A stretch of 16,279 nucleotides of DNA from an uncultured Gammaproteobacteria bacterium (GTDB lineage Bacteria > Patescibacteriota > Microgenomatia > Daviesbacterales > UBA10151): contig CAYHYM010000012.1 of NCBI GenBank assembly GCA_964360965.1, forward strand, positions 1 to 16,279, read 5' to 3'. Numbering within the stretch: position 1 is the first letter of the stretch; every line of letters starts with the position of its first letter. Positions 147 to 16,279 of this stretch are shown here, one piece after another. The notes beneath the pieces were generated by a model, which did no database searches, was not told where the DNA came from, and saw only the letters and a list, made by a program, of their open reading frames with translations. The position numbers were made by a program, and so were the translations under genes.

Positions 147-410
147 ATGTTCTACTACTTCTATATTCTTCAGAGTCAGAAGAATGGAAAGTTATATCTT
201 GGCCATACCTCTGATCTTAACGAAAGACTAAAATCTCATAATGCCGGTGAAAACAATGCAACAAAACCAAATATTCCATATGAGTTGATTTTCTTTTCAG
301 GTTTTAAAAACGAGAGAGATGCTATAAATTGTGAGAAATATTTTAAAACAACTGCGGGGTGGAAAAGACTTCATAAAATGCTAGAAAATTATCTAGCTTC
401 TATTGAGTAA
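147..410 (+). CDS. GIY-YIG nuclease family protein (small stand-alone UPF0213/YhbQ-like type)
   Basis: N-terminal FYYFYIL...GKLYLGHTSDL..RL..HN matches the GIY...YIG...R..H.N pattern. The 87-aa size is typical of stand-alone GIY-YIG proteins. Confidence 0.85.
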   Translation: MFYYFYILQSQKNGKLYLGHTSDLNERLKSHNAGENNATKPNIPYELIFFSGFKNERDAINCEKYFKTTAGWKRLHKMLENYLASIE

Positions 411-1215: not shown

Positions 1216-2991
1216 ATGAGTTTTTCCAACCAACAGATTGCCAAACTCCTCCGTAATGTAGCTGCAGCTTATACTATCAAAGGAATTGGTAATATTTTTC
1301 AGATCCGTGCTTATGAGAATGCTGCTGATTCAATAGAGCGCTCAACTGTCGAGATTAGGGATTTATGGGAAGAGGGAAAAATGGATGAGGTTCCCGGTTT
1401 AGGAGAAAGCCTGCGTGGCTACCTTCAAGAACTTTTTAAAACCGGCAAGGTAAAGCATTTTGAAAGTGTGGAAAAAGGCCTTCCTAAAGTGGTATTTGAC
1501 CTTTTGGATATTCCCGGGGTTGGTCCAAAAACAGCTTTGGAGATAGCAAACTTCGGCGTAAATAGTATTGATGATCTAAAAAAACAGATTAAATCAGGTA
1601 CTCTGGTTCAAAAAGGATTTTCCGACAAACTGGCAGAAAAAATCATATCAGCAATTGTGGAATTGGGTAGCCGTAATAGAAGAATGCTTCTTCCATATGC
1701 TCAGGCTCAAGCTGATAAAATTTTAATATTTTTGAAAAAAAGCGCAGATGTCATAGAAGCTCACCCTCTGGGTTCTTTAAGAAGAATGTTGGCTACAGTA
1801 GGAGACCTGGATTTTTCAGCCAGCTCCAAAAATCCCCCCAAAGTAATAGAATATTTTTGTAAAATGCCGGGAATTGTCAGAATAATTGATAAGGGAGAAA
1901 ACAAGGCCTCGGTAAGAGTGCAAAGCGGTATTCAGGTCGATTTACTGGTTGGTGGACTTAAGTCATATGGAGCTCTTCTGCAGCATTTCACAGGCTCAAA
2001 GAACCACAATATTAAGTTAAGAACATTTGCTAAAGAAAAAGGATATTCTTTATCAGAGTATGGTCTTAAACGGATGAAAGATGAAAAAATAATTGAGACC
2101 AGGACTGAGGAAGAATTTTATCATTTATTAGGGATGCAGGCTCCTCCGCCAGAGATTAGAGAAGATACAGGTGAAATTGAGGCTGCCCTTCGACAAGCTC
2201 AGGGTAAACCAGGTGGTTTACCGGATTTGGTTAAGTTTAAGGATATAAAAGGGGATTTACATCTTCACTCCAATTATCCCATCAAAAGTCCTTCTCACGG
2301 ACCTGGGGTTGATTCAATTGAGGAAATTGTTAAGAAGGCTCAACAGCTGGGTTATGAATTTGTTGGTATATCTGATCATCCTCCCGGATTCACCACCAGT
2401 AGTAAGAATGAGACTATTGAGTGGGTTCAAAAGAGGACAAAAAGTATTCAAAATATTCAAAAGGGTATAAAAAGTATTCGAGTACTAAATGGACTCGAAA
2501 TAGATATATTAGGAGATGGGAGATTGAGTGTGCCTGATGAGATATTGGCAACTTTAGATTACTGTATAGCCGGAATCCATTCCGGCCATAGAGGTCATAA
2601 GGATGAAATTACCAAAAGATTAGTGGCTGCTTTAAATAATCCTCATGTAGATATTATTTCTCATCCCACCAACAGATTGTTAAACGAGAGAGAATCTTCT
2701 GATGCAGATTGGGAACAAATTTTTAAATTAGCTGCCAAAAACCATAAATTACTGGAGATTAATGCTTATCCTAACAGGCTGGATTTAAGAGATGATCTGG
2801 TTAGAAAAGCGCTGGAATATGGGGGGAAATTTATTATTAATACTGATGCTCACCAGGTTATACAAATGGACAATATGTTGTTTGGAGTATCTGTAGCCCG
2901 TAGGGGCTGGGCACAGGATAAAGATATTGTTAATACTTGGGACTGGACAAAATTTAAAAATTGGTTTAATATAAAAAATGATGTCTCTTAA
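1216..2991 (+). CDS. polX: Family X DNA polymerase with C-terminal PHP phosphoesterase domain (PolX)
   Basis: HhH motifs (IPGVGPKTA), catalytic GDLDF and VDLL aspartates, PHP GDLHLHS and GISDH motifs. ATG 1216 is preferred over the track's TTG 1213. Confidence 0.9.
2186..2222. repeat. GC-rich element in the polX core-PHP linker: ccct/aggg stem around loop tcgacaagctc, then the perfect hairpin ggtaaacc-aggt-ggtttacc
   Basis: Read directly. The 17-mer ccttcgacaagctcagg recurs with one mismatch at 5988-6004 in gatA. In polX it is translated in frame as [10 protein letters not shown]. Confidence 0.65.
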
Positions 2992-3537: not shown

Positions 3538-4494
3538 ATGGCAACGGTTAATACTGCTTGGGATCATGTTGGATCAAATGTTTTTAAGACCTGGTTGATC
3601 ATGTTAATCTTCAGCCTTTTTACTGTGGCAGTAATTTATATCATAGCTAGAGGGTTTGGATATGGCTCGCCTCGCTTCGCGGGCGAAGCGGGAGAAATAG
3701 GAGGGTTAGGGATAGTAGGTTTTTCCTTGATCATGGCAGGAATAATGAACTTTGTTTCATATTTTTGGTCAGATAAGATTGTACTGGGTGTTTCAGGCGC
3801 AAAACCAATAAAAAAAGTGGATAACCCCGAAGTCTACAGAATAGTGGAAAATTTATGTATTGCTGCAGGTCTGCCCATCCCTAAAATTTATATTATTGAT
3901 GATACTGCCACCAATGCTTTTGCCACAGGCAGGGATCCCAAACATGCGGCTATTGCCTATACCAAAGGTATTTTACAAAAGCTTAACAAACAGGAGCTGG
4001 AGGGAGTTACGGCCCATGAGCTTTCTCATGTGGGAAATAGGGATACTCTGGTGATGGCGGTTGTTTCTGTTTTGGTGGGAACCATAGCCTTACTTTCTGA
4101 TTTCTTTATGCGGTCAATGTGGTATGGAAGCCATGGTGGTGATAGAGATAGCAAAGGAAATACCATGTTTATGGTTATTGCCATTGTGGCTGCCATTTTG
4201 GCTCCAATAATTGCTACTTTAATCCAGCTGGCAGTATCCCGCAGAAGAGAGTTTTTGGCAGATGCCTCAGGAGTACTTTTAACCAGATATCCTCAAGGTT
4301 TGGCTAATGCTTTGCTTAAGATATCCAGCGATCGTGAAGCCTTGGAAGTGGCCAACCGCGGTACAGCACATCTTTATATAGTCAATCCTCTTAAAGGTAA
4401 AGAAGCCAAACAGTGGCTGGCAGGACTTTTTAACACCCATCCTCCGATCGAGACCCGCATCAAAGCCCTCCAGGAAATGGAAGGAAAAATTTAG
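3538..4494 (+). CDS. htpX: Zinc metalloprotease HtpX (peptidase M48)
   Basis: HEXXH motif (AHELSHVGNRD), downstream REFLADASG, four hydrophobic segments, and the conserved lemA-htpX gene pairing. Confidence 0.9.
   Translation: MATVNTAWDHVGSNVFKTWLIMLIFSLFTVAVIYIIARGFGYGSPRFAGEAGEIGGLGIVGFSLIMAGIMNFVSYFWSDKIVLGVSGAKPIKKVDNPEVYRIVENLCIAAGLPIPKIYIIDDTATNAFATGRDPKHAAIAYTKGILQKLNKQELEGVTAHELSHVGNRDTLVMAVVSVLVGTIALLSDFFMRSMWYGSHGGDRDSKGNTMFMVIAIVAAILAPIIATLIQLAVSRRREFLADASGVLLTRYPQGLANALLKISSDREALEVANRGTAHLYIVNPLKGKEAKQWLAGLFNTHPPIETRIKALQEMEGKI
3665..3694. repeat. GC-rich palindromic element inside htpX: gctcgcctcgcttcgcgggcgaagcgggag, with 7-bp stem cgcttcg/cgaagcg and loop cggg
   Basis: 23 of 30 nt are G/C in an AT-rich gene. 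The blocks gctcgcctcgc and ggcgaagcggg are identical to gatC 4811-4821 and 4822-4832. Confidence 0.75.
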
Positions 4495-4534: not shown

Positions 4535-4879
4535 ATGAGAAAGCCAAAGATTATTGGTTTTTTTGATTCGAAAAAAGTCGCTCGCCTTGCTAATCTGCCA
4601 CTTACTTCTGAAGAAGAAGAGAAATATTCTGAACAGCTTTCTAAGATTTTAGATTACATAGAACAACTCAATAAGGTCGATACCAAAGATGTGGAACCAA
4701 CTTTTAATGTTAGTGGTCAGGCTAATGTAATGAGAAAAGATACTATGGATGTTTGTTTACCCCAAGAAGATGCTTTATCAAACGCCCCACAAAAGAAAAA
4801 TGCCGTGCCTGCTCGCCTCGCGGCGAAGCGGGCCGTCAGGCAGGGATTTTTTGTGACAAAAGGAGTTTTTAAGGTGTAA
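4535..4879 (+). CDS. gatC: Asp/Glu-tRNA(Asn/Gln) amidotransferase subunit C
   Basis: [41 protein letters not shown] plus NAP...GFFVTKGV at the C-terminus. Sits directly upstream of gatA and gatB. Confidence 0.9.
4802..4845. repeat. Composite GC-rich palindromic element inside gatC, translated in frame as [15 protein letters not shown]
   Basis: 35 of 44 nt are G/C. Outer arms tgcctg (4806-4811) and caggca (4837-4842). Flanks match the gatA copy at 5634-5657 and the core matches the htpX copy. Confidence 0.8.
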
Positions 4880-4895
4880 CCTTAACAGACGAGTT

Positions 4896-6317
4896 ATGGA
4901 TATCACCGGCTTAACATTAGCAGAGACTTTGAAAGCTCTTAAGAACAAAGAGTTTTCTCTAGAAGAGCTTAATAAAGCTTATTTTGTGAGGATTGATAAA
5001 TATAATACTGAGCTTAACGCTTATTTAAATATAAACAGAGGCAATTCTAAAATTCCTGCTGCCATAAAAGATGTAATCTCCACTAGGGGAATTCCCACCA
5101 CTGCCGCTTCGAAAATTCTGGAGGGATTTATCCCTCCTTATGATGCCACGGTGATAGGGAAGTTAACAGAACAAGGTATAGGGGTAATTGGTAAAACCAA
5201 CTGTGATGAGTTTGCCATGGGATCATCAGGTGAGAATTCGGCTTTTGGCCCCACAAAAAATCCATGGGATTTAAATAAAGTTCCCGGAGGATCTTCATCC
5301 GGTTCTGCTGCAGCAGTATCTGCTGATCTTTGTGTATTTGCACTTGGATCTGATACCGGAGGTTCTATCAGGCAACCTGCATCTTTATGTGGAATTGTTG
5401 GGTTAAAACCAACTTATGGCAGGGTCTCCAGATACGGCCTGATGGCCATGGCTTCATCTTTAGATCAAATTGGACCAATAACTAAATCTGTGGAGGATGC
5501 AACTCTAGTTTTAGATTGGATATCAGGTTCTGATGGATACGACTCAAATGTGTCCAAAAAGTTTACCTATTCAGAAGATAAATTAAAATCTGGGGTCAAA
5601 GGACTTAAAGTTGGCGTGCCTAAAGAGTATTTTGCCGTGCCTGCCGGCAGGCAGGGAGGGGGTTTGGATCCAAAAATTAAGAAAGTTATTGAAGAGGCAA
5701 TTAAAAAATTGGAAGAATTAGGTGCAGAAATAGTTGAAGTCAGTCTACCACACAGCAAGTATGCTTTGGCTGCTTATTATATTATTGTGCCGTCTGAAGT
5801 TTCTTCTAACATGGCCCGCTATGATGGGATAAGGTTCGGATTAGGGAGAGAAAATATAGGAGCTGAAGTTAAAAGAAGAATCATGCTCGGTACATTTGCG
5901 CTATCTTCCGGATATTATGATGAATACTATACAAAAGCGGCCAGAATAAGAACCTTAGTTAAGCAGGATTTTGAAAAAGCTTTTGATCCTTCGACAGGCT
6001 CAGGAGTAGATGTGATAGTTGGTCCGGTCTCCCCCACCACAGCATGGAATATAGGAGAAAAAATAGATGATCCTTTAACTATGTATCTGCAGGATGTTTA
6101 CACAATTTCTGCTAATTTGGCAGGAATTCCAGGGTTATCTGTACCTTGTGGTTTTGCCCACGCGCCAGACGGCGCAGGGTTATTGCCTGTGGGCCTGCAG
6201 ATTTTGGGAAAACAATGGGACGAAGAGACTATTTTAAGAGTTGGTTATGCTTATGAACAATCAACAGATTGGAGAAAAGAGAAACCTTCCTTGTCATCCC
6301 GTACTTGCCCGCCCTGA
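4896..6317 (+). CDS. gatA: Asp/Glu-tRNA(Asn/Gln) amidotransferase subunit A
   Basis: Amidase signature [11 protein letters not shown] and [13 protein letters not shown]; PVGLQILGK near the C-terminus. Confidence 0.95.
5634..5656. repeat. GC-rich palindrome inside gatA, containing the perfect 16-nt palindrome tgcctgccggcaggca (5638-5653), translated as AVPAGRQG
   Basis: 19 of 23 nt are G/C. gccgtgcctgc and caggcaggga are identical to the flanks of the gatC element and lie in the same reading frame. Confidence 0.8.
5987..6005. repeat. Short GC-rich element inside gatA (tcct/agga stem, loop tcgacaggctc), translated as PSTGSG
   Basis: Same architecture as polX 2186-2204, and the 17-mer matches with one mismatch. 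Confidence 0.55.
6157..6179. repeat. GC-rich hairpin inside gatA (gcgcc-agac-ggcgc flanked by ccc/ggg), translated as AHAPDGAG
   Basis: Read directly. It coincides with extra residues between the conserved PCGF and LPVGLQ motifs. Confidence 0.45.
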
Positions 6318-6342
6318 ACGAGGCCGCAGGGATACGGGATCC
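6293..6342. repeat. GC-rich palindromic element spanning the gatA 3' end (arms atcccgta 6296-6303 and tacgggat 6333-6340; inner ccctg/caggg)
   Basis: Exact 8-bp and 5-bp inverted repeats. The gatA stop TGA (6315-6317) lies inside the element. Confidence 0.7.
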
Positions 6343-6362
6343 ATAGATAATGTTTTTAATTG

Positions 6363-6419
6363 GATTCCCGCTCCTCGAGTCTGAGCGACCTCGGAGTCGA
6401 TGACTTTCGCGGGAATGAC
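6363..6419. repeat. GC-rich palindromic element in the gatA-gatB spacer (arms attcccgc 6364-6371 and gcgggaat 6409-6416, 37-nt interior holding the direct repeat cctcgagtc / cctcggagtc)
   Basis: Exact 8-bp inverted repeat read from the sequence. It ends in the same ...aatgac motif as the element at 7836-7858. Confidence 0.7.
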
Positions 6420-6437
6420 GAAAGGGTAGACAGAATT

Positions 6438-7760
6438 ATGAATAAATATGAACCAGTAATTGGGCTTGAGGTACATGTAGAGTTGAATACCAAAAGTAAG
6501 ATGTTTTGCAGATGCAGCGCTGATTATTTCGGTAAAGAACCAAATACTCATACTTGCCCTGTATGTCTGGGCCTTCCCGGAGCTTTACCTTATATTAATG
6601 AGCAAGCAATAAATGATTGTATAAAAATAGGCCTGGCCTTAAATTGCAAAATTAGTAAAATTTCTCTATTTGAAAGAAAAAATTATTTTTATCCGGATTT
6701 GCCAAAAGGGTATCAGATTTCCCAATACAGATGGCCATTGTGTGTTAATGGCTGGATTAATGTAGAAGGTAAAGATGGTGAAGAAGTAAAGATCAGAATA
6801 AATAGAGCGCATCAGGAAGAGGATACCGGTAAGTTAACTCACAAAGGTGCAGATACACTGATTGATTTTAATAGATCCGGGGTGCCTTTGGTCGAAATAG
6901 TCACTGAACCGGATTTTAGAGATGTAGCAGAAATAAGAGATTATGCCAAGAAGTTGCAACAACTCTTTAGGTATTTAGGGGTCTCCAATGCTGATATGGA
7001 GCGGGGTGACATGAGATTGGAGGCGAACGTTTCCGTTCGTCCTGAAGGTACTGAAGGGCTACCTAACTATAGAGTAGAGCTTAAAAACATAAACTCTTTT
7101 CGGTTTATGGTAGCTGCTGTGGAATATGAAATAAAAAGGCAGACAGAGGCGCATGATGCAGGTGAAAAGCTTAGTCTGGAAACAAGAGGTTGGGATGAGG
7201 ACAAAAAGTGTACATATTTACAAAGAAGTAAAGAAGAAGCTCATGATTACCGCTATTTTCCCGAACCTGATTTACGGGAGATTCGAATTGACACTTCCGA
7301 TGTGGAAAAACTACAGGTTCAATTGCCTGAATTACCCCGGGTAAAGGGTAACAGATTTGAGGAAAAGTATAGTTTATCAAAACAGCAAGCAGTAATTTTA
7401 ACAGAATCAAGGCAATTGGCTGCTTTTTTTGAGGAAGCTGTTAAAGACGGCAAAGATCATGGGCTAGAAGCTAAGACTGTGGCCAATTATATTATTAACA
7501 GGAAAATTAATATTAAAGAAGTTTTACCGGCTCAAGTGGTAATAGAGATAAGGGATAGAGGAATGGGGGTAATTGAGGATTTAGGGGAGTTAGAAAAAAT
7601 GGCAAAAGAGGCTGTGGAGGAAAATCCCAGAGTAGTAGAGGATTACCAAAAGGGAAAAAAAACAGCTATTCAAGCCTTAATTGGATCAGTAATGAAAAAA
7701 TCTCAAGGGAAAGCAGAACCAGAAAAAATAAAAAAAATCTTAGAAAGGTTATTAAAATGA
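6438..7760 (+). CDS. gatB: Asp/Glu-tRNA(Asn/Gln) amidotransferase subunit B
   Basis: MNKYEPVIGLEVHVELNTKSKMFC, CPVCLGLPGALP, KNYFYPDLPKGYQISQ, DYRYFPEPDL. Start moved from the track's TTG 6360 to ATG 6438 because the conserved N-terminus begins there. Confidence 0.92.
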   Translation: MNKYEPVIGLEVHVELNTKSKMFCRCSADYFGKEPNTHTCPVCLGLPGALPYINEQAINDCIKIGLALNCKISKISLFERKNYFYPDLPKGYQISQYRWPLCVNGWINVEGKDGEEVKIRINRAHQEEDTGKLTHKGADTLIDFNRSGVPLVEIVTEPDFRDVAEIRDYAKKLQQLFRYLGVSNADMERGDMRLEANVSVRPEGTEGLPNYRVELKNINSFRFMVAAVEYEIKRQTEAHDAGEKLSLETRGWDEDKKCTYLQRSKEEAHDYRYFPEPDLREIRIDTSDVEKLQVQLPELPRVKGNRFEEKYSLSKQQAVILTESRQLAAFFEEAVKDGKDHGLEAKTVANYIINRKINIKEVLPAQVVIEIRDRGMGVIEDLGELEKMAKEAVEENPRVVEDYQKGKKTAIQALIGSVMKKSQGKAEPEKIKKILERLLK

Positions 7761-11367: not shown

Positions 11368-11682
11368 ATGATCTCAAAGAAGATTCAATCCTCAACTATT
11401 CATATAGGTGATCAATTGCGGGTGCATATTCGGGTTAAAGAAGGAGAGAGAACCCGCGTACAAGTTTTTGAAGGTATTTTAATAAGACTTCGGGGTAGGG
11501 GAGAAAATTGTACTTTTACTGTTAGAAAAATTGGTGCTTTGCACATAGGGGTGGAAAGGAGTTGGCCTTTGGATTCAAATTCCATAGTTAAAATTGAAGT
11601 TAAAAGGAAAACTACCGGCGTGAGAAGGTCTAAGCTTTATTATCTGCGTGATCTTATTGGAAAAGAAGCAGTAAGAGTTTAG
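11368..11682 (+). CDS. rplS: 50S ribosomal protein L19
   Basis: [26 protein letters not shown]...[19 protein letters not shown] is the L19 signature region. Confidence 0.93.
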
Positions 11683-15253: not shown

Positions 15254-16279
15254 TTAATCTGTACGAGCGGGACCCGAAATTTCCTTCCAATTCATCCACT
15301 GAGGATCTATCTTAGCTTTCCTTATTGACTCCTGTCCAGCTAAAATTAGCCGGGAAGGAACATGGCCTTTTTTTACCCTTGCTTTAGTTTCTTTAAGCAG
15401 TACCAGAGTTAATTTTTCTTCTACCTCTTCTCTTGGCAAGCTGTCTAAAGGAATTCTATTAATAGCCATTACTCCAACGGGTACATCACCAAAACCTACC
15501 ATCCATCGATAACCTTCCCATACATACGGTCCGTGCACCCAATCTACCCTATGGTCATCATTATTCCTATAGACTCCCCATCGTATTTGATCTGTTACTT
15601 TCTCCCACTTTTCTTCTATTAGACTGGTAGAAATTACATCGAGATACCTTCCCTTATTCATATTCACAGAATGAACGCATACCTGCAGAGATGTTGTTTC
15701 AGTTGTGAGAGCAAACCTATACGAATATCCCCCATGGTGACCTTGCCGGTCTTGCCTTTGGGCTGATTGATAAGAGAATTTTAGTTCAAAAGCTGCTTGT
15801 GGATTATAGTCAGGAGGAAAAGTAGAATCCAAACCACTATAAGCAGATTTTGGATCAGTAGAAATCTCACGAATTACACCTTTTCCCTCCCAAACGGTAG
15901 CATTTATATATCCTAGCCTATCACGTATTCTGAGATCTTCTGCAATTTGTTTTATTTCCCCAAGTGTTTGTAGTCTACCCTCTATGAGTTGACGCCCTTG
16001 TTGCTCTCTAGCTTCTTTTTCTCTCTTACTTCTTTCTACCAATTGTTTCTCCCGTTCAATCCGCTGAAGTTCTGTTTTTCTTGCCATATCTAATTCATCC
16101 TCTATTCCTTTATTGAGTCTGATAGCAAAATCTGATAGCTCGGGTGGAAGTTGCACAATCTTTGATGGTGGTTGTTGAGTTGGTTGTATCTCAGGTGGTA
16201 ACCCGAAGAATCTATTTAAAAATCCCAAAAAACCACTTTTAGGTTCCTGTGGAGGAAGTGGTTCTCCTGTGCCACTATT
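15254..16279 (-). CDS. Hypothetical protein: proline-rich N-terminal region, charged coiled-coil-like segment, Trp-rich C-terminal domain; probably 5'-partial
   Basis: A 324-codon ORF in AT-rich DNA. The first in-window start candidate is TTG at 16228 with no convincing Shine-Dalgarno, and the frame stays open to the window edge. I recognise no family motif. Confidence 0.6.
   Translation of the reverse strand, partial: NSGTGEPLPPQEPKSGFLGFLNRFFGLPPEIQPTQQPPSKIVQLPPELSDFAIRLNKGIEDELDMARKTELQRIEREKQLVERSKREKEAREQQGRQLIEGRLQTLGEIKQIAEDLRIRDRLGYINATVWEGKGVIREISTDPKSAYSGLDSTFPPDYNPQAAFELKFSYQSAQRQDRQGHHGGYSYRFALTTETTSLQVCVHSVNMNKGRYLDVISTSLIEEKWEKVTDQIRWGVYRNNDDHRVDWVHGPYVWEGYRWMVGFGDVPVGVMAINRIPLDSLPREEVEEKLTLVLLKETKARVKKGHVPSRLILAGQESIRKAKIDPQWMNWKEISGPARTD

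Follow-up and report, generated by a model that had tools for sequence, protein, structure and literature searches.

Nested palindromic elements inserted in frame within the gatC gene of a Daviesbacteria-related bacterium

The gatC gene and the states of its insertion site

The stretch of DNA considered here, referred to below as the window, consists of 16,279 nucleotides (nt), positions 1 to 16,279 of contig CAYHYM010000012.1, with a G+C content of 38.8%. Its gene order is an FtsJ-like methyltransferase (minus strand), PolX-PHP, LemA, HtpX (an M48 peptidase), GatC, GatA, and GatB, with further open reading frames (ORFs) recognized by translation as DnaE, ribosomal protein L19, RNase HII, a YraN-like protein, PurQ, and PurL, those for DnaE, L19, and RNase HII also being backed by Pfam; a tRNA-Glu is encoded as well. 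The nearest named relatives of the window's GatC are Candidatus Daviesbacteria, i.e., Microgenomates of the candidate phyla radiation (CPR). Of concern is that gatC gene, which carries an in-frame insertion made up of one short palindromic element lodged within another. This is one of seven segments interrupted by hairpin modules in these 16 kb, which together involve four housekeeping genes and one intergenic spacer. In what follows, L-numbers designate related loci or metagenome contigs, and P-numbers designate proteins related to GatC. The features with which the argument begins are these:

4535..4879, + strand: gatC, the host gene; 114 amino acids (aa), with relatives mostly 94-97 aa; Pfam GatC at 80 bits, and alignment
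4802..4843, + strand: in-frame composite insertion of 42 nt (14 aa); DNA alignment (L006 empty, L005 solo), site survey, and a predicted nested hairpin
4802..4810, + strand: outer palindromic element, left part, GCCGTGCCT; same as gatA 5634-5642 and the L007 gatC solo
4811..4831, + strand: inner element, 21-nt short form, GCTCGCCTCGCGGCGAAGCGG; pattern match, with a boundary that can be shifted by up to 2 nt
4832..4843, + strand: outer element, right part, GCCGTCAGGCAG; one G>T versus the solo form, GCCGGCAGGCAG
5634..5654, + strand: solo outer element, GCCGTGCCTGCCGGCAGGCAG, in gatA, in frame as AVPAGRQ; 12 orthologues empty; hairpin of -10 kcal/mol, z-score (z) -3.0
3665..3691, + strand: solo inner-type element, 27-nt long form, in htpX, adding GSPRFAGEA; 8 orthologues empty, TAT|GGRGA

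An initial annotation described positions 4802-4846 as a gatA-type outer palindrome with an htpX-type core in its loop. Upon re-reading, the bases, the flanks, and the reading frame all are as there described: The segment is GCCGTGCCTGC-TCGCCTCGCGGCGAAGCGGGCCGT-CAGGCAGGGA, its left 11-nt and right 10-nt flanks are identical to those of gatA 5634-5657, where CGG alone serves as spacer, and it is translated in frame between NAPQKKN and FFVTKGVF. As viewed against the empty orthologous site (AAAAAT|GGATTT), the segment is indeed a true insertion, but one whose extent is trimmed to the 42 nt of 4802-4843, with a boundary ambiguity of 1 nt. Within it the inner element sits just 5' (1-3 nt) of the centre of the outer palindrome, i.e., at CCTGCCT^GCCGG. 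A nested hairpin is predicted for the composite both as DNA (-16.2 kcal/mol, z -2.3) and as RNA (-28.0 kcal/mol, z -2.45), and the insert's position in the protein is the loop-forming stretch just before the GatC C-terminal strand. An Rfam scan of the window returned the tRNA-Glu as its sole match, and the hairpins therefore are explained by no known RNA family. The composite also is no artefact of assembly, as the identical 114-aa GatC is found on four separately assembled Hainich groundwater contigs, from four sequencing data sets.

Among 120 GatC relatives, approximately 100 have an empty site, 15 carry a 7-aa solo insert, and several possess other long forms. Most read NAPKKKx|GFFVTKGVF, that is, with nothing between, and in DNA the empty site is AAAAAT|GGNTTT (L006 along with 17 species-representative loci). 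Two solved GatC chains, that of A. aeolicus with 94 aa and that of S. aureus with 100 aa, can be aligned as far as NAPxxK (residue ~88-90), after which they continue for approximately 10-15 residues; as these chains nearly end at that point, there is no room in them for the insert, in agreement with the initial annotation, by which B. subtilis GatC likewise has nothing at this position. By alignment, site survey, and solved structures, then, the GatC of unrelated lineages is without this segment.

The outer flanks are, as had been claimed, a gatA-type palindrome, and this is found alone at the same gatC codon boundary in the form of 21-nt inserts in L005 (GCCCTGCCTGCCGGCAGGCAA), L007 (GCCGTGCCTGCCGGCAGGCAA), and L009 (GGCCTGCCTGCCGGTCAGGCA). 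Over the 15 relatives its form is G[CG]C[CG]TGCCTGCCGGCAGGCA[AG], read [AG][LV]PAGRQ. The window's insert is equivalent to the L007-type insert with 21 nt added at CCTGCCT^GCCGG and with one G>T change, making the composite one of 21 + 21 nt. Other GC-rich hairpin alleles occupy this site in L248 (GCCCGCCTGCCGAGCGGGCAG), in L249 (GGCCCGCCTGTTGGCGAGGCA), and, as a 36-nt form, in L008, while the allele of L012 looks like an L248-type solo, the central 3 nt of which have been replaced by a different 21-nt hairpin. The P0003 GatC, which is ~64-73% identical to that of the window, reads GLPA[RLAAKRA]GQA, and this is the exact translation of an L009-type solo plus a short inner element at the same junction. 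That reading suggests an independent nesting event at gatC, one for which the DNA junction would be GGCCTGCCT|GCTCGCC...GCGG|GCCGGTCAGGCA.

As the closest relatives of insert-bearing GatCs mostly are empty-site proteins (e.g., P0008 and P0099, at 93% identity), gain or loss at this site has been repeated, though with GatC itself being too short for a firm tree. Recent or ongoing mobility, as had been claimed, would follow solely from how patchy the insert is among relatives of 80-93% identity; polymorphism within populations was not seen.

Two element families and their point of nesting

The gatA site is empty, GAGTATTTT|GGAGA, in 12 orthologues and filled in L025 and L034. The identical 21-mer, GCCGTGCCTGCCGGCAGGCAG, is found in the gatA of the window and of L025 as well as in the HtpX C-terminal region of L020, with a variant, GCCTTGCCTGCCGGCAGCCAG, at the same gatA site in L034, and with near-identical copies in Obg (L016), PolX (L025, L063), GatB (L049), and HtpX (L051). 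This outer family comprises 13 matches within 3 mismatches in the first locus set, has the consensus (N)CCTGCCTGCCGGCAGGCAG(G), and is nearly always read LPAGRQ, a type of frame which is employed by 9 of 10 outer copies examined, plus by the gatA and gatC copies. This bias is seen even though the palindrome itself is stop-free in all frames, and is indicative of selection acting on the peptide, of a target correlated with codon phase, or of both. The four empty outer sites all are W|GG(A/T), preceding a glycine codon.

Two observations on this palindrome come from elsewhere. A 29-kb, GC-rich contig of IMG/VR, labelled 'viral' (3300037242_000417; represented by L111, L118, and L119), holds six exact outer 20-mers, two of them preceded by GTAG, as in tagged repetitive extragenic palindromic sequences (REPs). 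At L077:6781-6820, from a metagenome-assembled genome labelled Omnitrophota, the loop of the outer palindrome holds a different, AT-rich 20-nt piece, TTAAACATAACTGACGTGCG; provided that this genome was correctly binned, occupancy of the loop is restricted neither to a single inner family nor to a single phylum.

With the inner family, eight orthologues having an empty htpX site make the htpX insert one of 27 nt. The pattern GCTCGCCTCGC-N(0-8)-GGCGAAGCGG has just two matches in the window, 4811-4831 (gatC) and 3665-3691 (htpX), versus none in 200 window shuffles. These two differ solely by the 6 nt TTCGCG, and the consensus of this second family can be written GCTCGCCTCGC(TTCGCG)GGCGAAGCGG. A metagenome scan yielded at least 119 stretches matching GCTCGCCTCGC-N(0-8)-GGCGRAGCKGG. 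In contigs of <45% G+C, the matches listed are dominated by two forms, the 0-gap form with 23 copies and the 6-nt-gap form with 21, and, as the former is about as common as the latter, the gatC interior is an ordinary short-form copy, with no private deletion. The gatC core, that is, was correctly placed in the htpX family, with which it shares its termini, but the 6-nt gap, initially taken to be a short internal deletion, is instead a subfamily trait. Those inner termini coincide at the htpX and gatC sites to within a 2-nt ambiguity (read CTCGCC...GCGGG or GCTCGCC...GCGG).

Within genes, inner copies occur in both orientations (23 sense and 8 antisense, among clear cases, with coding status in metagenome contigs judged from ORF length alone), and they are read mainly in GSPR..GEAG and PASP..GEP frames, a preference which points to a filter on the peptide. 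Those contigs that are from the Joint Genome Institute (JGI) come without taxonomy. In the viral contigs searched there were no composites and just three inner copies; phage carriage thus is not supported. Peptides of the outer and inner types are seen together in L140:2782-4413, from the same sample as the window, where a PNPase-like protein has an RGG-rich C-terminal tail with one LPAGRQ and two nearby GSPRFAG[EG]AG.

Searching among related loci turned up solo outers, solo inners, and further composites, a result which, like the lack of the segment in unrelated GatCs, is in favour of the initial annotation. Seven other contigs possess the same junction, CCTGCCT|GCTCGCC...GCGGG|CCGGCAGG, with the inner element of short form in L130, L134, L174, L199, and L243, and of long form in L232 and L148. 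Eight composites, the window's included, share CCTGCCT^GCTCGCC despite their different outer and inner variants, and the outer arms of the other seven match different solo variants, namely that of L049, CAAGGCAGG, and that of L005, GGCAAGG. Such a fixed junction across mixed variants would fit either with point-specific integration or with composites that spread as units, and nesting in place is to be favoured because it is the local variant, GCCGTGCC, that is found in the outer arms of the window. Over 1.78 Mb of loci at no more than 50% G+C, two classes of spacing separate CCTGCCT from AGGCAGG, with 19 cases at 3-8 nt, six at 26-33 nt, and none between. Complementary flanks of at least 5 bp border 13 of 72 inner copies, whereas re-paired controls averaged 5 and never exceeded 11.

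The polX gene supplies a second series. Its orthologous site is empty in the window, filled by a solo in L025, and filled in L045 by a solo plus a 21-nt inner of self type, so that the progression from empty to +21 nt to +42 nt is seen at two genes, gatC as well as polX. What had been proposed, successive insertions or palindromes serving as preferred targets, is supported by these step series, by the fixed junction, and by P0003. In addition, an inner-family array in L195 consists of three left halves and then four right halves, as is expected given repeated central insertion rather than tandem duplication. Concentric inner-family arrays are found at L195:~11500-11600 and at L192:~7640-7700, centred in a CCCTGAGCTT^GTCGAAGGG element, which brings three families or layers together; L192 otherwise encodes ordinary CPR genes (S1, RadA-like, and type IV secretion system, T4SS, pilins).

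Mobility, rival explanations, and a candidate enzyme

Comparison of these loci at the level of sequence demonstrates discrete elements with fixed ends, the occurrence of empty, solo, and composite states, a fixed nesting point, and, within genes, what appears to be filtering by frame and length. The best reading, to which I would assign a probability of roughly 65%, is one of miniature hairpin elements, resembling REPs or small dispersed repeats (SDRs), the loops of which are preferred targets, with one element coming to be nested within the other. Such elements would be non-autonomous mobile DNA, copied into new sites in trans. At gatC, starting with the empty site that is ancestral, a 21-nt outer palindrome would have come to occupy that site, and the exposed centre of this now existing hairpin would have represented a preferred point of integration. 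Insertion of a 21-nt, second-family element near the centre of the palindrome would then have produced the composite. In coding regions, survival would be confined to copies whose length is divisible by three and whose frame encodes a Gly/Pro/Ser/Ala-rich peptide, and the insert most likely is translated and tolerated rather than useful. Single-strand mobilization of HUH type is the leading but unproven mechanism, with template switching at hairpin centres the main alternative.

It is unlikely, from a different perspective, that it is the composite itself which spreads, either having arrived in gatC in one step or having replaced a solo by gene conversion or template switching via the palindrome arms. 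Those arms would supply 7-10 nt of homology per side, the junction is identical in all eight composites, and L134 and L174, at different loci, share the outer variant CAAGGCAGG along with the form of the inner. The outer element of the window, however, is of the GCCGTGCC variant, shared with the window's gatA solo and the L007 gatC solo but not with the generic CCTGCCT composites. Several outer variants, moreover, are paired with both short and long inners, and the best reading of P0003 is that of an L009-type solo with an inner added. The identical junction likewise bears on whether survival alone could suffice, i.e., without any preference in integration, such that an earlier insert serves to mark a tolerant stretch of protein in which later, random insertions then are retained. 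Every coding copy does have a multiple-of-three length and no stop codon, frames are strongly biased to Gly/Pro/Ser/Ala-rich peptides, and different families share loops (the GatC C-terminal linker and the GatA PCGF|LPVG loop). A tolerant 21-nt stretch nevertheless offers many points, and yet all eight composites use one; furthermore, composites and concentric, self-nested copies also are found where no long ORF spans them, with one composite in the window's gatA-gatB spacer. Survival without preference accordingly is very unlikely as an explanation.

Instability at the centre of the palindrome would be a further route, where the tip is cut or replication stalls, and repair then copies in a GC-rich hairpin by microhomology-mediated template switching. 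Palindromes are known to undergo central revision in other organisms, insertion here is at or beside the dyad centre, each junction has 1-2 nt of ambiguous (microhomologous) bases, and a gene for a PolX-PHP repair polymerase lies 1.5 kb upstream. The same two termini are found, though, at the non-palindromic htpX site as within the palindrome, and indeed in dozens of unrelated contexts; such fixed termini are to be expected if the piece is a discrete element, but not if it is filler DNA, the extent of which would be arbitrary, and this leaves the route quite unlikely. To regard the segment as a long-standing, functional part of GatC, or instead as an assembly artefact, is hardly credible. The segment is in frame, and within an essential operon, but is missing from most close relatives and from solved GatC structures, the same DNA is present in unrelated genes, with related families read in different frames, and the segment is identical in four independent assemblies.

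A number of points weigh against the reading of miniature hairpin elements that target loops. The exact outer 20-mer, CCTGCCTGCCGGCAGGCAGG, is present in 35 stretches of IMG/VR contigs, mostly of 55-68% G+C, where its copies use the three phases equally, that is, with no frame bias; because it is present in these GC-rich contigs, the outer palindrome is not lineage-specific, and it could arise or spread in ways not understood here. The locus set was partly picked for presence of the inner element, making the above frequencies and enrichment figures rough. The apparent second nesting at gatC, that of P0003, is read from the protein sequence. Some composites may spread as units, given the outer and inner variants shared by L134 and L174. 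A domain scan found neither a transposase nor another candidate enzyme in the window, and, within the loci, no RAYT-like gene (for REP-associated tyrosine transposase) is flanked by either gatC family, the hairpins flanking such genes being of another family, TTGCAAGGCGTCCCC. The tag that marks classical REPs, GTAG or CGTC, is lacking from both gatC families, and RAYTs cut beside hairpins and are not known to do so in loops. Finally, polymorphism was not seen within populations, and current activity is unproven.

Two further notions were dropped. One was that the AT-rich inverted repeat at the empty gatC site (AAAAAT-GG-ATTTTT) might be the primary target, but this is not conserved at other sites. 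The other was restriction-enzyme cutting at the central CCGG/GCCGGC, which is not supported, there being no duplication of CCGG around the inner element.

As to what might mobilize these elements, a motif scan of the loci returned six proteins of approximately 230 aa that possess both the HUH and the tyrosine motif known from IS200-like transposases:

L011:7612-8310, L033:16610-17311, L039:16497-17234, L041:9027-9752, L156:2108-2860, L195:9554-10234: RAYT-like Y1 (HUH) transposase genes, flanked by matching hairpins

Three representatives pass Pfam Y1_Tnp, at 31-47 bits (cut-off 23), while the best NCBIfam match is to a REP-associated tyrosine transposase model, at 36-43 bits, which is below its cut-off of 80. 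The protein has more than 7,000 homologues, of which the best 120 are 65-100% identical over nearly their full length, and those sources that are named among the best 120 are Daviesbacteria or Levybacteria. The hairpins matching across these genes lie on both sides, and their TTGCAAGGCGTCCCC family is dispersed. This Microgenomates lineage thus appears to have a REP/RAYT-like system whose hairpins can land in frame in genes, and the RAYT-like HUH/Y1 transposase is the best lead for mobilization of the gatC families, as a candidate only. Mobilization by an HUH enzyme stays unproven because the gatC families are untied to the RAYT-like genes, are without the GTAG/CGTC tag, and insert into loops, which is non-classical. 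Ten ORFs scanned beside the element-rich L192 and on L195 are ordinary CPR genes, the RAYT-like gene of L195 having come from the motif scan, and a repeated-peptide query of the composite against a protein database, an uninformative query, produced no candidate. A bolder version of the argument, possible but doubtful, is that ultra-small (21-27 nt) mobile hairpin modules constitute a new class found in many uncultivated, low-GC bacteria, integrating site-specifically into single-stranded hairpin centres, including their own, and so giving rise to concentric composites within essential genes, by a reaction other than that of classical REP/RAYT systems, whether a new HUH-type activity or an RNA-mediated one.

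The transposase genes have hairpin associations of their own. Inside gatA, at L039:10926-10961, the RAYT-flanking hairpin is present as an inverted doublet (AAGGCGTCCCC..GGGGACGCCTT, 11-bp arms), resembling a REPIN (a mobile element formed by paired REPs) in a coding region. Four Daviesbacteria transposase genes hold a hairpin, TTGCA[AG]GG..CC[CT]TG, apparently in frame and right after the YIHKQ motif (peptide ALALQG..); the transposases of L156 and L195 retain the canonical YIHLNP at that point.

Known repeat systems and further repeats of the window

Elhai et al., in 2008, reportedly described SDRs in heterocyst-forming cyanobacteria as hairpins of 21-27 nt, some found inside their own copies. 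Within the cyanobacteria, SDR5 has been described as placed precisely inside the HIP1 palindrome (PMC4390886). The gatC-type elements are similar in that their units are 21 and 27 nt, with a predicted hairpin, and in that modules nest, also within their own family, at a fixed, off-centre point of a 20-nt palindrome. By description, i.e., not by sequence, the cyanobacterial SDR set is the closest analogue of the gatC-type elements. The host, however, is instead of the CPR/Microgenomates, the target is a dispersed 20-nt palindrome which is itself an insertion, versus an 8-nt over-represented motif with SDR5, and many gatC-type copies are in frame inside housekeeping genes.

REPs have been documented inside ORFs, apparently tolerated in loops, and are described as carrying a conserved tetranucleotide, GTAG or CGTC, at one hairpin foot (PMC3733652). 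With REP/REPIN-RAYT systems the elements here share GC-rich, imperfect palindromes of 20-40 nt, in many dispersed copies. They differ in that neither the solo outer, GCCGTGCCTGCCGGCAGGCAG, nor the inner, GCTCGCCTCGC..GGCGAAGCGG, holds GTAG or CGTC on either strand, the CGTC that is found in the window composite arising from the single G>T change. REPs also are mainly extragenic, whereas three window copies (gatC, gatA, and htpX) and most outer copies are in frame within genes, and the nesting of the gatC families in each other's loops is not a described property of REPs. The same source describes Rickettsia palindromic elements (RPEs) as in-frame palindromic repeats in genes that most likely still encode working proteins (PMC3733652). 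The gatC-type repeats resemble these in being inserted in frame in ORFs. RPEs, though, are ~100-150 bp in length and not known outside Rickettsia, versus units of 21-27 nt, a composite of 42 nt, and nesting.

The mobile G+C clusters of yeast mitochondria are short, GC-rich hairpins of an AT-rich genome, found in coding regions, in tandem, or nested, and from these the byp elements are derived, which the ribosome skips such that the reading frame need not be kept. Those are organellar, in contrast to the gatC-type inserts, which are in frame (21, 27, 36, 39, and 42 nt) and stop-free; as all coding copies are stop-free and multiples of three, plain translation is the simplest reading. Unlike with miniature inverted-repeat transposable elements (MITEs), the comparison of filled with empty sites shows no duplication beyond 1-2 ambiguous bases, and the units are far shorter. 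A search of the literature, which was incomplete and thus is weak evidence of novelty, produced no description of elements like these from the CPR and nothing relevant on the peptides that they encode. The gatC finding is best described as belonging to the class of small palindromic repeats, and its nesting rule is unusually clear.

Candidate-phyla bacteria possess tiny genomes that are thought to have been stripped of mobile DNA. If the nesting rule is real, then it would represent a simple target preference, for hairpin centres, on the part of the smallest class of mobile DNA, and also a source of short peptide insertions into conserved proteins. It would be a warning as well for annotation and phylogenetics, as inserts give rise to spurious ORFs, shared motifs, and marker-gene indels, and it would link a widespread, well-conserved, RAYT-like gene of Microgenomates to possible substrates.

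Other hairpin modules of the window are the following:

6362..6419, + strand: second nested composite, gatA-gatB spacer; hairpin GGATTCCCGC..TTTCGCGGGAATGAC, the loop of which holds at its 5' edge an inner piece of 33 nt (6372-6404)
2187..2203, + strand: third family, CCTTCGACAAGCTCAGG, in polX; frame LRQAQG, part of an insertion of 6 aa versus L009
5988..6004, + strand: third family, CCTTCGACAGGCTCAGG, in gatA; frame PSTGSG, part of an insertion of 5 aa versus L009
6156..6182, + strand: GatA loop segment of 27 nt (AHAPDGAGL), with a GC-rich palindrome core, CGCGCC..GGCGC; replaces a 9-nt, 3-residue segment, for a net +18 nt

The spacer hairpin, GGATTCCCGC-TTTC-GCGGGAATGAC, is a solo in L205 (in the form GGATTCCCGCtttcGCGGGAATGAC), and 6362-6419 has a predicted fold of -15.5 kcal/mol (z -2.7). 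This spacer is absent from L009, where the two genes overlap. Approximately 140 nt of GC-rich hairpin material in all, 6296-6437, lies between gatA and gatB in the window, including a second spacer hairpin at 6296-6335 (ATCCCGTA..TACGGGAT). With it GatA gains seven codons (SSRTCPP), and a spurious upstream extension of the gatB ORF is created, DSR[SSSLSDLGVDD]FRGNDE.

The third family, CCTTCGACA[AG]GCTCAGG, has 23 copies in low-GC loci, with its polX and gatA copies read in different frames. The PCGF|..|LPVG loop of GatA is short in 40 loci elsewhere (with 3 residues in 37 and with 4 in three), and that same PCGF|LPVG spot holds the third family (CCTTCGACA) in L016 (11505) and in L011 (2343). 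This loop of GatA is a hot spot.

Two observations concern the ends of the window. At 15254-16228 (minus strand) there is an ORF of 324 aa, with no Pfam match, that adjoins the tRNA-Glu. At positions 1-45, as also at L018:5755 and L025:4655, there is a conserved hairpin, GGCCCCGCCACGT..ACGTGGC, which has no Rfam match and which is found beside a small ORF (window 147-410) with a GIY-YIG domain.

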